NCBI GenBank assembly: GCA_947626895.1
Contig: CANQTY010000004.1
Location: 1-58,959 of the forward strand
Source: an uncultured Bacilli bacterium
GTDB lineage: Bacteria; Bacillota_I; Bacilli_A; RFN20; CAG-449
Reading direction: 5' to 3'
Length of the DNA: 58,959 nucleotides
Position numbers and translations under genes: made by a program. Each line of letters starts with the position of its first letter. Position 1 is the stretch's first letter. Shown here in pieces: positions 16,297 to 22,016 of this stretch. The notes below the pieces were generated by a model, which was not told where the DNA came from, ran no database searches, and worked only from the letters and a program-made list of their open reading frames with translations.

Positions 16297-16322
16297 AAAA
16301 CGCCTATTTCTAGGCGCTTTTC
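16297..16322. terminator. Bidirectional hairpin terminator
   Basis: AAAA-CGCCTA-TTTC-TAGGCG-CTTTT. Confidence 0.5.
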
Positions 16323-17139: not shown

Positions 17140-17171
17140 CAAAAAAAGCTAAGAGTTTTACCCCTTAGCTC
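17140..17171 (-). terminator. Rho-independent terminator closing the four-gene operon
   Basis: The minus strand reads AGCTAAG-GGGTAAAACT-CTTAGCT followed by TTTTTT, 23 nt after stop 17194. Confidence 0.6.
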
Positions 17172-17193
17172 TTATTCTTATATATTTGAAAAA

Positions 17194-17658
17194 TTAGCGA
17201 TGTTTTCGTTTTTTATTTGGCATAGCAGATTCTTGTTCATGATGATAACGAAGATAACAATCCTGTAAAAGTGCATTATATTTGTTTTTTGCTTCTCTTA
17301 ATTCTCTAGCGCTACGCACCACTAAATTAGATTTCTCATCATAATCATCATCGTCCATATCGTCATCGTCAAAATAAAAATTAAAAGTGAAGTTATCTTC
17401 TTCCATGAAGAAAATATCAAGATTTTGAAAAATATCCGCGCAAATATCAATAGCCTTTTCACTTTTATATTCATCTAACCATGTGTAAAGTATTCCATCT
17501 TTATAAGCAATAACATTTTTCTCTTCAAGTACTTGAAATAGCTTTCTTATCCTTTGATACGGCAAAGAAAACTTATCCTGTATATTAGGAATTGTTACTT
17601 CATTAGTCTTCGTTAAATAACGTATTATTTCGATATACTTATCTTTAGTGATTTCCAT
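17194..17658 (-). CDS. Small wHTH (FtsK-gamma-like) protein with poly-Asp acidic tract and basic tail
   Basis: The N-terminal 60 aa have an FtsK-gamma/wHTH-like pattern (YIEIIRYL..VTIPNIQDKFSLPYQRIRKLFQVLEEKNVIAY). This is followed by FYFDDDDMDDDDYDE and a basic C-terminus (PNKKRKHR). The start is embedded in the upstream gene's last codons (14-nt overlap). Confidence 0.6.
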   Translation of the reverse strand: MEITKDKYIEIIRYLTKTNEVTIPNIQDKFSLPYQRIRKLFQVLEEKNVIAYKDGILYTWLDEYKSEKAIDICADIFQNLDIFFMEEDNFTFNFYFDDDDMDDDDYDEKSNLVVRSARELREAKNKYNALLQDCYLRYHHEQESAMPNKKRKHR

Positions 17659-19345
17659 ATCTACTTATTACTTCCTTTTTAAATTTTTCACACTTATTAA
17701 TAACTTCTTTAACTTCAGACGAAATGATATAATCATTAAAATCAGCCGTTTTAATGTTTGACCATTCTTTCCATTGATAATATGGCACTAACATAGAGAA
17801 TAATACATAGCCTGTATTTGCTTCAGTGATAACGCATTCACCTCTTTTTAGAGATCTTAATTGACTAATTGGAAAAGTATATACTGTTTCCATTGTATAT
17901 TGTTGTATTCTATCTGTATCCCCATTCAAAAAGTTCACTGGAGAAAAGCGCACAACTGAGCCACATTCATTTCTAAATTGTTCCACTGTTGGCATATTAT
18001 TAGAGCCTAAAAACACATGCATATTTAAGTTATCCTGAATGATTTTTGAAACAAGTCCACCATAAACATTATCAAGTTGAGCATAACTTTGAAGAATTAA
18101 GATAAAGAAAATATTTCTACCTCCACAGGCTGAAATGGTTGTATCAAAATCTGGAATTCTTGGAACATTTCCAAATTCATCTAAGACAAAATAGAAAGGA
18201 ACTTCTAATTTTCCATCTTTTCGATTTGTCGCATATGTAATCAAATATTCATATGCTTTTTGAATATAAGTTGAAATAACTTGATATTGATCCTTTACTT
18301 CGTCTTGATAGACGATAAATACCGCAACAGGATGTTCAGGATCTACTAATTCGCTTAAATCCAAAGTGTTAAAACTCGTTAAATGACGGATAGATGTATT
18401 CTTATATGGAGCTAACTTAACACCTAATATACTAATAATACATTGCGCTGTGTTCTTGGCATTGCCCAAGATTGTTCTTTGTGCATACTGACGTGCATAA
18501 GAAGTATATGGTCGCGATCTAAAATAGGCATTTTCTGATTGATCATAATATCCACTTGTCGCCTCTACTAAAGTAATTAATGTATTAAAATTAAATGTTT
18601 CTTCCGTAACTCTTGGTCTATTAGACGTAGGGTGAGTATCTTCAAGCATTCCCCAAAGGAAGGCTTTAAAAAGTTCTCCAGCAGCTTGTTCCCAATAGGG
18701 ATCTTTAAACGATTCTACGGTGATGACTTGACTAGCTAATTTGTCAATCAAAACACCAACTTCATCAAGAATATCCATCTTGTTTAATTCTAATTCTAAA
18801 TCTAAATCTTTTTGATCTTCATAGATTTGTCCACGATAACAATTTCTTTTTCCATGTGGAGTATCTACTACAGAAACTTCATCTTCTAAATTATCAATAG
18901 ATTGATATTTATGAAAAATATCTGAAAAGAAATTCCAATATTCAGAATGTCGATAATCTCGGTAATTTAACAAGCGAATACGATATTCATGTTCCTCTAA
19001 AAAGGGTGAAATTATACGATATAATTCACCTTTTGGGTCAGTAATGAATAAAGATCTTTTTTGTTTATATAAAGCAAAGACATGAAGCATAGGAATAACA
19101 TAACTTGTGGTTTTTCCTACACGTGTTGCAGCAATAACCGCGACATGTGTTTCTCTATCAGAGAAGGTAAAACATAAATCATCTCCAACATATTGACACA
19201 TTTTTAAGACCCCATGTAGATCTTTTCCGTCTTTAATTTCTGAATACTTATAAGTGTTTTCAAAATGATAATCAACATCTTTATATTTAATTACTTTTGT
19301 ATTTTCATAATTTTCAAAAATAGTATCATCAATTTGTATTTTCAT
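17645..19345 (-). CDS. Soluble VirD4/TraG/TraD-family (type IV coupling protein-like) P-loop ATPase, no TM anchor
   Basis: Walker A AATRVGKTTSYVIP, DPKGELY, Walker B FYFVLDEFGNVPRIP, and LILQSYAQLDNVYG (TraG-D_C signature). There is no hydrophobic N-terminus. The preferred start is ATG 19345 after GAGGTGGAG. The ORF-track start at 19381 is less likely. Confidence 0.8.
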   Translation of the reverse strand: MKIQIDDTIFENYENTKVIKYKDVDYHFENTYKYSEIKDGKDLHGVLKMCQYVGDDLCFTFSDRETHVAVIAATRVGKTTSYVIPMLHVFALYKQKRSLFITDPKGELYRIISPFLEEHEYRIRLLNYRDYRHSEYWNFFSDIFHKYQSIDNLEDEVSVVDTPHGKRNCYRGQIYEDQKDLDLELELNKMDILDEVGVLIDKLASQVITVESFKDPYWEQAAGELFKAFLWGMLEDTHPTSNRPRVTEETFNFNTLITLVEATSGYYDQSENAYFRSRPYTSYARQYAQRTILGNAKNTAQCIISILGVKLAPYKNTSIRHLTSFNTLDLSELVDPEHPVAVFIVYQDEVKDQYQVISTYIQKAYEYLITYATNRKDGKLEVPFYFVLDEFGNVPRIPDFDTTISACGGRNIFFILILQSYAQLDNVYGGLVSKIIQDNLNMHVFLGSNNMPTVEQFRNECGSVVRFSPVNFLNGDTDRIQQYTMETVYTFPISQLRSLKRGECVITEANTGYVLFSMLVPYYQWKEWSNIKTADFNDYIISSEVKEVINKCEKFKKEVISRYGNH

Positions 19346-19358
19346 TTTAGTCTCCACC

Positions 19359-20990
19359 TCACTCTTTCCAAACATGACCAATAGTTTGTTCTACATTTCG
19401 CGCCTCTTGAAGCAATTCTTTAAAATTATCCTTATTTACAATAAGGGTATCATTTTCCATTCCCGCTCTTCTAAAAGCTGCTGCTAAAATTTTTGTGCAA
19501 TCTGTTAAAGTAACTTTTTCTAAAGCTTCATAACAGCTAGAATCGATTTGAACCATTTCCTTGCTATAAAGACTATTTCTTTGTTCCGCCCAATATTGAA
19601 CCAATGAAGCATGATCTTTATCTTTAATATCGGGTAAGCGGATAGTTCTTGCATTTGGCATTAAAAACTTAGCGTTTTTAGCATCCGCGAAGCAAATAAT
19701 TAATGTAGAACCAATATCTAACGAAATAGAAAAATCGGAAAGTGTAAATGATTTTCTTTTGTTTGTAAGCATTAAATCGTCTGCGCGATCAAAAATTTCA
19801 GAATCAATATCACCGACGAAGTTCAAGAAAAAGAGATTATTTTTCTTGTCTTTTATTTTACGAAGAAAAATATTTGTTCGACACGCATCAACATCAAAAC
19901 CTTTTAATTCCGAGATATCAATACTTTGAACATTCGTTTTTTCATTACTAAATGCTCTTGCTAAAGCTTTTTGATAAATTGGGAATAAATAGGGATTTCC
20001 TACAATTAAAAGAGGAACGTATTTATCTTTATTACAATTTTTTACGGTTAATAATTCAGATTTTAAGCTTTTAATAACGTTTTCATCATAAAGTAAGATG
20101 GAATTTAATTCATCATATTTAATTGTAAAATTAGGAGCAGGTAAATTCATTGGGAATTCACTAATTGCTTGAATTTCTGCGACGGATAAATCATTAATGA
20201 TTCTTTCTTTTTCTTGATAAGATAAAGTATTAGAATAGGCAATTCGATCAAATGCCTTGCTATATCTAAATCCAGATACTTTATTTCTTGCAATCGCTTT
20301 AGAAATGACTTTAACACCTTCATCATAGGCATTTTCTTCTAAAACACCATAGGTTTCCGCTAATAGATCATATAACTCAACATCGATTCCATTTCTAGTG
20401 ATTGTTTTTAATTTTAAGAGCATATCACTTGCGTCTTTATCTAGTACATCACAAAAAGTTACATAACTAAAAGCACTTAATTTATCTGCAAATTTTGCAG
20501 CACGTAATAATTTTTTCTTTCCCTCTTTCATATCTTTTTTAACATGAAAGCCTTCGCATTGCATCTTTCCATAGACACGTAAAGCTAAAATCCAGCCTTC
20601 ATTTGCCTTTTTCGCAACATTTTCCAAGGATTGGTATAAAGCCTTAATATTTTTTGGAATTAAGTTAGATTTATACGCAGTTTCCATGACTTCTTTTTTA
20701 ATGAAGAAAAGGGTTTTTTCATCTTCACTCCATGGACATTCCATATTTGAAGCTTCATAATAATCAAGTAAACGAGAATAAATATAAATCTCCTCTCTTG
20801 TGTAAGAAGGTTCAAATTGATTTTTAAACATTAAAGGTTCTAACTCAGCTTTTTCGTTTTCTAATAATTCAAAACGAGTAGCTTCTATATCAAAAATTTC
20901 TTTTGCAATATCTCCATGACATGCAGATCCCAATAAAATTTGCCAAGTATAATATTCCTTAGCAAAATTTTCCATAATTTTATTAATCAT
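19359..20990 (-). CDS. 543-aa protein: Sel1/TPR-like N-terminal half plus degenerate (pseudo-)AAA+ C-terminal half
   Basis: A Sel1-like segment (ALRVYGKMQCEGFHVKKDMKEGKKKLLRAA). The C-terminal half resembles SpoVK/CbbX-type AAA+. The Walker A position reads PLLIVGNPYLFPIYQK (no GK[ST]). The Walker B position reads LFFLNFVGDID. The start lies 6 nt after the clpP-like stop. Confidence 0.5.
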   Translation of the reverse strand: MINKIMENFAKEYYTWQILLGSACHGDIAKEIFDIEATRFELLENEKAELEPLMFKNQFEPSYTREEIYIYSRLLDYYEASNMECPWSEDEKTLFFIKKEVMETAYKSNLIPKNIKALYQSLENVAKKANEGWILALRVYGKMQCEGFHVKKDMKEGKKKLLRAAKFADKLSAFSYVTFCDVLDKDASDMLLKLKTITRNGIDVELYDLLAETYGVLEENAYDEGVKVISKAIARNKVSGFRYSKAFDRIAYSNTLSYQEKERIINDLSVAEIQAISEFPMNLPAPNFTIKYDELNSILLYDENVIKSLKSELLTVKNCNKDKYVPLLIVGNPYLFPIYQKALARAFSNEKTNVQSIDISELKGFDVDACRTNIFLRKIKDKKNNLFFLNFVGDIDSEIFDRADDLMLTNKRKSFTLSDFSISLDIGSTLIICFADAKNAKFLMPNARTIRLPDIKDKDHASLVQYWAEQRNSLYSKEMVQIDSSCYEALEKVTLTDCTKILAAAFRRAGMENDTLIVNKDNFKELLQEARNVEQTIGHVWKE

Positions 20991-20996
20991 AAAGTT

Positions 20997-21551
20997 CTAA
21001 TCTCCTTTCGCCTTATTTTTAGAAGGTATTACATAATCAATTAACCCATATTCTAAGGCTTCTTGCGCCGTTAAAATATAGTCTCGATCTGTATCTTTAC
21101 AAATAGTTTCGTAAGTTTGGCCTGTATTCTCGGCTAAGATGCGATTTAATTTTTCACGAACTTTTTTGATGTGCTCTGCAGCAATAATAATATCGCTTGC
21201 TTGACCTTCTGCTCCGCCTAAAGGTTGGTGAATTAGAATTTCACTATTTTCAGTCGCTTTTCGATATCCCTTGGAACCCGCGGAAAGTAAGAAAGCAGCC
21301 ATACTTGCCGCACATCCAAGTGCTACAGTAACGATACGAGCTTTGACATAATTCATTGTGTCATAAATCGCAAATCCAGCGGTAACGCTACCGCCAGGTG
21401 AGTTAATTTGAATTGTTATCTCGTCATGACCCTGACTATCAAGATAAAGTAATTGAGCAATAACCGTATTTGCAAGGTTATCATCAATTGGTCCAAAGAT
21501 ATTAATAATGCCTAATTCTTCGGAAAAACTAACAGAATTATCTTTAATCAT
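20997..21551 (-). CDS. ClpP-family serine protease paralog lacking the N-terminal axial-loop/alpha-A segment
   Basis: The ClpP core is strong: [18 protein letters not shown], catalytic Ser in [11 protein letters not shown], His in LIHQPLGG, Asp in DTDRD. It is about 14 aa shorter than canonical ClpP and has no VIEQT..RGER.YDIYSRLL segment. An in-frame TAA 9 nt upstream of the ATG excludes an N-terminal extension. Confidence 0.85.
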
Positions 21552-21701
21552 TTCTTCTTATCCCCCCTTTTGTTCCAAAATGGAAAAAATGACAATTACG
21601 TAATACACGTGACGAAAAAGATTTTCGTGCTATAAGTTAATCATTGCAAAATATCGACCTTAAAACAACTTATTTTCAATTTTTGCGCTTTAAAATAAAT
21701 A

Positions 21702-21729
21702 TTACAATGTAATCAAATTATGTTATGAT
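21702..21729 (+). promoter_or_regulatory. Candidate sigma-A promoter, plus strand (TTACAA-N16-TGtTATGAT), antisense to the clpP-like leader
   Basis: -35 TTACAA at 21702-21707. Extended -10 TGT-TATGAT at 21721-21729. Confidence 0.35.
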
Positions 21730-21987
21730 CCATAGCAAATGAACACTAATGATAGATTAAAATAAAATAGGAGTCTATCTTATCTTGTGCCAATTAACCA
21801 TGTACGCGTTCACGGATTGTAGCACAAGAAGTAAATGTTGGTTTTTAGCAAAGATCATAAATTTTGTTTAACCTCCTTTCTGTGCTACACGCAAACACAA
21901 TGATAGGTTAGAAACCCACATAAGCGCAAAAAGCCCCCAATATAGCTTTTTTTGAATCCCTTTTTTTCTAACCTGACGTGTATTTTC

Positions 21988-22016
21988 ATTCTAAAACCTA
22001 AAAATAAAATTGTCAA
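21988..22016 (-). promoter_or_regulatory. Strong sigma-A-type promoter for the clpP-like operon (TTGACA-N17-TAGAAT)
   Basis: On the minus strand, TTGACA (22016-22011), a 17-nt spacer, then TAGAAT (21993-21988). This predicts a TSS near 21981 and a leader of about 430 nt. Confidence 0.55.

Follow-up and report, generated by a model that had tools for sequence, protein, structure and literature searches.

ClpX, ClpA and ClpC dock on ClpP by means of an IGF/LGF tripeptide, and all partners of ClpP known to us are AAA+ unfoldases. Similarly, to our knowledge, all characterised type IV coupling proteins (T4CPs) act at a secretion channel. In FtsK, the γ winged helix reads DNA motifs (KOPS) and controls the motor, and CalpL-CalpT-CalpS and other CARF/SAVED protease-σ modules belong to type III CRISPR signalling. 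The subject of this analysis is a four-gene operon on contig CANQTY010000004.1 (assembly GCA_947626895.1) of an uncultured Bacilli bacterium, whose whole stretch of 58,959 nucleotides (nt) is called the window below. In order, the operon encodes a ClpP-family serine protease (g1), an ATPase-dead Lon/Clp-like AAA+ protein (g2), a soluble P-loop ATPase of the T4CP fold (g3) and an FtsK-γ-like winged helix protein (g4). That is to say, known superfamilies are brought together, each without a defining feature: ClpP without its gate, the T4CP without its anchor and type IV secretion system (T4SS) context, and the AAA+ protein without its nucleotide motifs. The operon is tentatively read as the smallest version of a cassette conserved among the Clostridia of gut and rumen; this cassette may carry out DNA-triggered proteolysis, probably in conflict with mobile elements.

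Conservation and composition of the cassette

An earlier reading of the sequence (the original prediction) had called the four genes an 'orphan' operon and had stated that no system of such composition was described. The second statement holds, PADLOC giving no match and full-text literature searches no description of the cassette, which on its composition appears to be a new kind of system with a still conjectural role. The first does not: an exhaustive profile search gave 330 g2 clusters at 50% identity, nearly all of 525-555 amino acids (aa), and the g3 family comprises at least 697 clusters at 90% identity, whose members, if named, are called 'type IV secretory system conjugative DNA transfer family protein'. 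Word-indexed searches with g2, either as a single sequence or as a profile of 46, found nothing beyond the window protein and P0002, and a contig scan of genomes using the g2 pair gave zero loci. Since g2 alignments are too divergent for pattern scans, g3 served as the scan query.

Assembly GCA_054288465.1 carries a distant g2 homologue (22-24% identity) in the order ClpP-g2-g3-winged helix-turn-helix (wHTH), within an unrelated neighbourhood. The g3 scan, run on one genome per species, gave 26 loci, nearly all on contigs labelled as gut or rumen Clostridia metagenome-assembled genomes (MAGs), including Subdoligranulum, Oscillospiraceae, Acutalibacteraceae, Christensenellaceae and Faecousia. 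Six further contexts were obtained by exact-protein look-up and 40 loci came from metagenomes, and 58 loci had enough sequence to be informative (33 plus 25 from metagenomes). The genes g2 and g3 are adjacent in every one of them (33/33 and 25/25), a ClpP gene lies immediately upstream in 39 (26/33 and 13/25), and a γ-type wHTH gene lies downstream in 40 (24/33 and 16/25), so that the predicted co-occurrence and gene order are borne out elsewhere. Because the arrangement is conserved in 58 loci, a chance grouping is excluded. The invariant core is g2-g3 and not all four genes; about one locus in three is without the ClpP gene. One contig, labelled as a Corallococcus MAG (L009, JAMPAB010000017.1), agrees with the uncultured-Clostridia contig L008 in gene order, and the two have nearly equal family-profile scores for their cassette proteins; L009 is likely mis-binned.

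The neighbourhoods differ from locus to locus and include the str operon, gyrA, tRNA synthetases and a prophage edge. For example, the cassette of L041 lies directly upstream of rpsL-rpsG-fusA-tuf, and that of L040 lies 6 kb from a prophage. As the original prediction had remarked for the window, no relaxase, VirB4 or other T4SS gene is present there, and the same is true of all related loci, none of which is embedded in a complete conjugative element. In addition, tblastn with g2 against 72,556 plasmids and 50,697 phages gave no match, no relative of g3 was found in IMG/VR, and these viral collections yielded nothing closer to g2 or g3 than distant T4CP-like matches.

Gene clustering divided the cassettes into two subtypes. 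The window-like subtype has the order ClpP-g2-g3-g4, which can be preceded by an HTH-like (F11) and a DUF1292-like (F9) gene. The sister subtype starts with ClpP-g2-g3, a 180-aa wHTH protein ending in ...LFDD, a σ70-like protein and an 88-aa zinc-finger protein, and continues with YbjN-like proteins and a full-length CARF4-PD-DExK nuclease (PADLOC 4e-33); a transmembrane (TM) protein with an RyR-like motif and a 1150-aa AAA_2+AAA+Peptidase_M41 protease can be added, and a Metallophos protein is frequent. The sister genes stand in conserved order in L001 (12483-19938) and in L013-L030. The two subtypes are bridged by L043, where an RyR protein, an AAA-M41 protease and a DUF4062-STAND protein stand beside a window-type cassette.

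Among the neighbours, the CARF4-PD-DExK nuclease recurs in 7 loci, and the σ70-like plus zinc-finger (anti-σ-like) pair lies directly downstream of the cassette in 12; TIR, DUF4062-STAND, Metallophos and AAA-M41 protease genes are also recurrent. The loci L044 and L045 have no ClpP gene, and a gene for a trypsin-like protease lies nearby (L044 5181-6191; L045 12432-13193), which suggests that the protease effector may be swappable. L044 also contains a TIR-methyltransferase and, like L011, a RuvB-like AAA+ gene. No CRISPR array was found within 10 kb of 40 loci (L001-L039 plus the window). One PADLOC match among the neighbours, 'CARF_m8...Beta-galactosidase', was discarded: the F8 TM protein did not give it, and it probably came from the glycosidase part of the model.

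Proteins of the cassette and the g2 tail motif

No match to g2 was found by sequence in Pfam, NCBIfam, PADLOC, PHROG or the PDB sequences. Its AlphaFold model, built from an alignment of 46 relatives, is of high confidence (pLDDT 91, pTM 0.85) and consists of an all-helical N-domain (about residues 1-320), an AAA+ module of α/β and lid parts (about 325-535) and a disordered C-terminal tail. Foldseek matched the AAA+ modules of LonA, LONP1 and ClpC (E 6e-8 to 1e-4) as well as viral Lon-like proteins. The motifs of nucleotide binding are absent: Walker A (GxxxxGK[ST]) occurs in 0/141 full-length relatives, the β1-α1 loop has only 2-3 residues, Walker B (hhhhDE) is not seen, and a conserved Gly sits at the Walker B position. 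Therefore, of the prediction that g2 joins a Sel1-like region to a pseudo-AAA+ fold, the latter part stands, and the former is weakly supported, since Pfam Sel1 (PF08238) is not detected in the window protein and is detected in just 2/46 relatives (best E 2.7e-4). Pfam AAA is matched by none of the 46 family members. Identity to the window protein is 19-25% for g2, 37-50% for g3 and 55-72% for ClpP; that is, g2 evolves much faster than its partners, which fits a specificity subunit.

Across 46 diverse g2 proteins just five columns are invariant, and one of them, Gly538, is located in the disordered tail, within a tripeptide that reads IGH in the window protein and hydrophobic-Gly-aromatic (φ-Gly-aromatic) in relatives. 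Such a tripeptide (YGF, FGF, FGY, IGF, LGF) is found in the last 30 residues of 136/141 full-length relatives, against a background rate of 3.6% in other 30-residue windows, and it recalls the IGF/LGF docking loop of Clp ATPases. Moreover, the form of the tail varies with the presence of ClpP. A canonical [ILVM]GF tail occurs in 5/7 loci without a cassette ClpP versus 1/26 with it (Fisher p 5e-4, ignoring phylogeny), and in independent metagenome loci in 7/12 without versus 0/13 with it (p 0.0016, again ignoring phylogeny). The simplest reading is that cassettes without ClpP would use the host ClpP through the canonical motif, and that the divergent, loop-less ClpP would be paired with a co-adapted aromatic motif. 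The covariation thus opens the central g2-ClpP interaction to direct testing.

The protease g1 belongs to the ClpP family (MEROPS S14; Pfam CLP_protease, PF00574: 2.9e-68 and 229.7 bits, where 20.2 is the cut-off, over profile positions 17-180 of 182), with the triad Ser83/His108/Asp157 intact in the motifs AASM, IHQP and DTDRD, and these motifs are kept in all 21 cassette ClpPs from other loci. It stays below the NCBIfam cut-offs for clpP (PRK00277, 234.6 against 249; TIGR00493, 213.9 against 308.6), and the PRK00277 match begins only at profile position 34/203. The ClpP core and the missing N-terminal loop had both been rightly recognised in the original prediction, which had also called the gene 'truncated'; the loss is no accident but a family trait, as the N-terminal axial/gating loop is missing in 22/22 aligned cassette ClpPs, g1 included. 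In these proteins the Tyr of the canonical LYINSPGG is replaced by Gln or Leu, which suggests an altered docking pocket.

The ATPase g3 matches Pfam T4SS-DNA_transf (6e-36), TraG-D_C and TrwB_AAD_bind, and the GKT of Walker A (K78) and the DE of Walker B (389-390) are invariant in the family. Its structural model (pLDDT 82) is closest in Foldseek to Cagβ (4e-14) and TrwB (1e-11); the next-ranking matches are HerA chains of two defence complexes, SIR2-HerA and DUF4297-HerA. Among named proteins it is most closely related to the CD1115-family T4CPs encoded on conjugative plasmids of Firmicutes, at about 25-27% identity, and g3 reaches 226 bits on NCBIfam conju_CD1115, below the cut-off of 250. 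The plasmid proteins are longer, have two N-terminal TM helices and are encoded among pLS20-type conjugation genes. In g3 no TM segment was found (maximum 19-residue hydropathy window below 1.6), nor a convincing one in 26 homologues from other loci (hydropathy at most about 1.6, one at 1.61). The description of g3 as a coupling protein without a membrane anchor was therefore correct.

The small protein g4 consists of an N-terminal FtsK-γ-like winged helix, a poly-Asp tract (DDDDMDDDDYDE) and a basic C-terminal tail. On Pfam FtsK_gamma (PF09397) it scores 17.9 bits, under the gathering score of 30.6, which the genes at position 4 in L008-L011 and L027 exceed (36-68 bits). Profile-profile comparison of the N-terminal wHTH with γ (hhalign 96.9%, E 2e-10; two γ references entered by hand) supports the homology to FtsK-γ. 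That is to say, the predicted γ-like winged helix is upheld by hhalign and falls short in Pfam; in the profile searches as a whole, CLP_protease, T4SS-DNA_transf and TraG-D_C were found, FtsK_gamma remained sub-threshold, and neither Sel1 nor AAA was obtained for the window g2. Poly-Asp/Glu tracts recur among position-4 proteins. In L027 (11734-13323), two γ-type winged helices and a poly-acidic tract are fused to a tubulin/FtsZ GTPase (Pfam Tubulin 1.3e-29), an arrangement that recalls TubZ/TubR partition systems. In L046 (11708-15433), three tandem g4-type paralogues precede the genes for a 495-aa FtsK_SpoIIIE+FtsK_gamma ATPase and a Metallophos protein, with an HTH_3-Peptidase_M78 regulator upstream. 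Bona fide FtsK_SpoIIIE ATPases lie near the cassettes in both L045 and L046.

Operon signals and chromosomal setting

The open reading frame (ORF) listing places the four genes on the minus strand as predicted, and their translational coupling is seen in a 6-nt gap between g1 and g2, where AAAGGAGA overlies the end of g1, a 13-nt gap between g2 and g3, and a 14-nt overlap of g3 and g4. The longest ORF of g3 starts at TTG 19381; after the TGA stop of g2 and 13 nt, an ATG at 19345 is preceded by GAGGTGGAG, for which reason the shorter gene in Table 1 is the most likely one. The predicted promoter and terminator, which bracket the unit, were also found (the terminator hairpin, 17144-17173, has a dG of -16 kcal/mol and a z of -3.9). 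The original prediction had passed over the distance of 437 nt between the promoter-like site and the ATG of g1. An Rfam scan of the window and the leader found zero families. In related loci the position of the leader is occupied by the F11 and F9 genes, and no remnants of these were found in the window; the leader may regulate the operon in place of the HTH-like gene.

Table 1. Coordinates of the operon, its signals and other features of the window
Feature	Position	Strand	Evidence or remark
Intrinsic terminator after g4 (12-bp stem, 6-nt loop, U-run)	17141..17173	-	hairpin prediction
g4, FtsK-γ-like winged helix protein, 154 aa	17194..17658	-	Pfam, profile-profile comparison
g3, soluble T4CP-fold (VirD4/TrwB/Cagβ-like) P-loop ATPase, 566 aa	17645..19345	-	Pfam, NCBIfam, Foldseek
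g2, ATPase-dead Lon/Clp-like AAA+ protein, 543 aa	19359..20990	-	AlphaFold, Foldseek, profile search
g1, ClpP-family serine protease, 184 aa	20997..21551	-	Pfam, NCBIfam, alignment
Structured 5' leader, 436 nt	21552..21987	-	minimum free energy -102.6 kcal/mol, z -3.25 against shuffles
Leader small ORF, 27 codons (MIFAKNQHLLLVLQSVNAYMVNWHKIR)	21775-21858	-	preceded by strong Shine-Dalgarno AAAGGAGG
Promoter-like sigma-70-type site, TTGACA-N17-TAGAAT	21988..22016	-	11/12 match, best of region
Terminator-like palindromic repeat, 25 nt (AAAACGCCTAnnTCTAGGCnnTTTT)	16297-16321 and 22050-22074		copies 84% identical
Double-ring Hsp100/Clp ATPase, 683 aa	30124-32175	-	9 kb away from cassette
Rhs/YD-repeat protein, 1799 aa	37326-42725	+	RHS-associated core domain
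ORF after Rhs gene, 182 aa	42734-43282	+	possible toxin-immunity pair with Rhs gene
Protein weakly related to SpoIIE, 725 aa	48161-50338	-	100 bits against cut-off 490

The flanks are housekeeping genes, in accordance with the original prediction (ComFA/ComFC, an M23 peptidase, DUF1622 and a low-molecular-weight protein tyrosine phosphatase (PTP)), core chromosomal genes such as UvrB, LysS, FtsH, TilS and Mfd make up the remainder of the window, and a search for tRNA genes found none. The repeat pair AAAACGCCTAnnTCTAGGCnnTTTT encloses the cassette plus the M23 peptidase gene, 5.75 kb in all; it could be an insertion scar or merely two similar bidirectional terminators. No ClpP-binding loop of the form [ILV]G[FL] follows the D2 sensor-1 of the 683-aa Hsp100, and because this loop is absent the protein is taken as ClpB/ClpL-like and uninformative on ClpP partners. 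The stretch of the Rhs gene has an inverted GC skew, and in L045 an Rhs protein is also found upstream of the cassette. The weak relation of the 725-aa protein to SpoIIE hints that the host may be, or descend from, a spore-forming Firmicute.

Candidate mechanism, alternatives and comparison with known systems

From the folds, motifs, linkage and tail covariation described above we infer a course of action whose physical contacts, substrate and role are put forward as candidates. The winged helix of g4 would bind DNA and recruit or regulate g3, the pair forming a 'split FtsK', and the poly-Asp tract may act as an autoinhibitory mimic of DNA or of a peptide. The ATPase g3 would spend ATP on moving DNA, or else a protein that is DNA-bound or unfolded. 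As a scaffold, g2 would hold a partner or substrate with its helical N-domain and dock its φ-Gly-aromatic tail in the pockets of the ClpP barrel, as the loops of ClpX, ClpA and ClpC do. The ungated (open-gate) g1 would be the proteolytic effector. The output would be the DNA-triggered proteolysis of invader proteins, or of a host inhibitor or anti-σ factor so as to trigger a response. Two roles had been proposed originally, a proteolytic machine driven by a ring translocase and an anti-plasmid or anti-phage effector, and both are held here as candidates and not as established. Two features of g2, its IGF-like tail and the covariation of that tail with ClpP, lend indirect support to the coupling of a ring translocase to ClpP, and the defence idea gains support from the CARF-nuclease, TIR and STAND neighbours of sister loci; this company, together with a protease that can apparently be exchanged, points to a conflict role. 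The bolder proposal, a new class of compartmental protease in which a hexameric RecA-fold motor of T4CP type, in place of an AAA+ unfoldase, feeds ClpP through a dead AAA+ ring with IGF-like tails, gated by DNA through FtsK-γ in trans and serving immunity or regulation, is regarded as rather unlikely.

Several observations weigh against DNA-triggered proteolysis in conflict with mobile elements. The statistics of the tail and ClpP take no account of phylogeny, and L059-L062 are closely related. The window g2 is itself an exception to the covariation, its tail being the degenerate IGH although ClpP is present. The tail is also kept where the sole nearby protease is trypsin-like, so it may bind a partner other than ClpP, e.g., g3. 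The defence-type neighbours belong mainly to the sister subtype and not to the window, and for the four window proteins PADLOC-DB 2.0.0 gave marginal matches only (mad8 0.014, PsyrT 0.0011). No relatives of g2 or g3 in the phage and plasmid collections link the cassette to a known conflict. The window has plain housekeeping flanks, and exact-protein look-ups with the flanking M23 and PTP gave only cassette-bearing contigs and no empty site in related strains, which speaks neither for nor against a recent insertion and makes any mobility of the cassette conjectural.

The main rival to a conflict role is regulatory or housekeeping proteolysis, in which the cassette would degrade a DNA-bound regulator or an anti-sigma factor, or the wHTH protein itself, and so switch a transcription or developmental programme of Clostridia; its candidate substrates would be g4/F5 and, in sister loci, the zinc-finger protein. 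That ClpXP degrades anti-σ factors in a regulated way is well established, the genomic context is that of the core genome in the window and in L041, the σ70-like plus zinc-finger pair stands right after the cassette in 12 loci, and the conserved ...LFDD end of the F5 wHTH proteins may be a degron or adaptor-binding peptide. However, the distribution is patchy, with another genomic site in each species, the protease is swappable, being ClpP, trypsin-like or absent, the partners include CARF nucleases, TIR and STAND proteins, and g2 evolves very fast. As these traits are typical of conflict systems, a conflict system is favoured over core regulation, and the regulatory explanation is considered rather unlikely. 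An origin in a conjugative or mobilisable element, of which the cassette would be a domesticated or decaying piece or a DNA-partition/transfer module, with g3 still pumping for an element elsewhere, is improbable. The kinship of g3 with CD1115-family T4CPs of Firmicute plasmids would agree with it, as would the TubZ-like fusion of a g4 homologue to a tubulin/FtsZ GTPase in L027, the HTH_3-M78 regulator in L046 and the prophage near L040, and γ-type wHTH proteins also guide FtsK-like conjugative pumps. It is rejected on the distance of g3 from the plasmid proteins in both identity and NCBIfam score, on the lack of their two N-terminal TM helices in the whole g3 family, on a relaxase, VirB4, integrase-rich or T4SS context in 0/58 loci, and on the strict linkage of g3 to g2, itself absent from the plasmids and phages searched.

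It is also conceivable that g1 is simply the housekeeping ClpP of the host, lying beside g2-g4 incidentally, or that its short N-terminus is an artefact of assembly or annotation. In fact, g1 is the sole ClpP homologue within the 59-kb window and is 57% identical to residues 29-190 of B. subtilis ClpP (reference sequence entered by hand). Against this stand the identical 184-aa gene call in four independent assemblies, by which an artefact is excluded, the ORF listing, by which a longer gene is ruled out, the loop-less ClpPs in the same position in 21/21 cassettes elsewhere, the scores below the clpP cut-offs, and the translational coupling to g2. A mis-assembled 5' end of clpP is accordingly rejected, four assemblies agreeing and the loop loss being family-wide, and the explanation as a whole is very improbable. 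Slightly less credit still is given to a remnant of phage morphogenesis, i.e., a ClpP-like prohead protease with a packaging-type ATPase. PHROG head-maturation protease families do match g1 (4e-45), and packaging motors are related to FtsK-HerA ATPases, but g1 reaches 98 bits on Clp_rel_HeadMat (cut-off 120) as opposed to 234 bits on cellular ClpP models, the cassette contains no capsid, portal or terminase gene, and in the phage collections g2 is absent and g3 has distant T4CP-like matches only; a prohead protease was rejected on these scores and on the absence of structural phage genes. If the preferred reading of DNA-triggered proteolysis in conflict is true, the repertoire of ATP-dependent proteases would be wider, the T4CP fold would gain a role outside conjugation, and a protease-based, possibly DNA-sensing conflict module would be common in the Clostridia of human and animal guts.

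Compared with ClpXP, ClpAP and ClpCP, the cassette is alike in that a ClpP barrel with an intact triad is encoded beside a partner of AAA+ fold carrying a φ-Gly-aromatic element. It is different in that g2, without Walker A and B, cannot be the motor, the motif lies on a C-terminal tail and not on an internal loop, ClpP has no gating loop to contact an unfoldase, and the only ATPase predicted to be active is a RecA-fold T4CP. The best structural match of g2 is the AAA+ module of LonA, with which it shares a helical N-region followed by α/β and lid domains; unlike LonA, it has neither a protease domain nor nucleotide-binding motifs, and sequence similarity is undetectable. With TrwB, VirD4/Cagβ and the CD1115 family, g3 shares the fold, Walker A and B, the all-α domain and the TraG-D_C region, and it differs from these T4CPs in having no TM anchor, T4SS, relaxase or VirB4, in its identity of about 25% and score below the family cut-off, and in always occurring with g2.

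Like FtsK/SpoIIIE and the TraB-type pumps of Streptomyces, the cassette combines a ring ATPase of the FtsK-HerA superfamily with a γ-type winged helix; unlike FtsK/SpoIIIE, the γ part is on a separate small poly-acidic protein, a predicted DNA reader, the motor is of T4CP type and not αβ, and there is no membrane domain. SIR2-HerA and DUF4297-HerA similarly couple a hexameric ATPase of the same superfamily genetically to an oligomeric effector enzyme, although in the cassette the effector is ClpP, with a dead AAA+ protein as the adaptor, the motor g3 belongs to the T4CPs and not to HerA, and PADLOC has no match. Finally, the sister cassettes resemble CalpL-CalpT-CalpS in joining proteases, a σ-like/zinc-finger anti-σ-like pair and a CARF effector, but they have no cas genes or CRISPR arrays within 10 kb and no SAVED-Lon, and the cassette of the window, which is without these extra genes, presents the composition in its smallest form.

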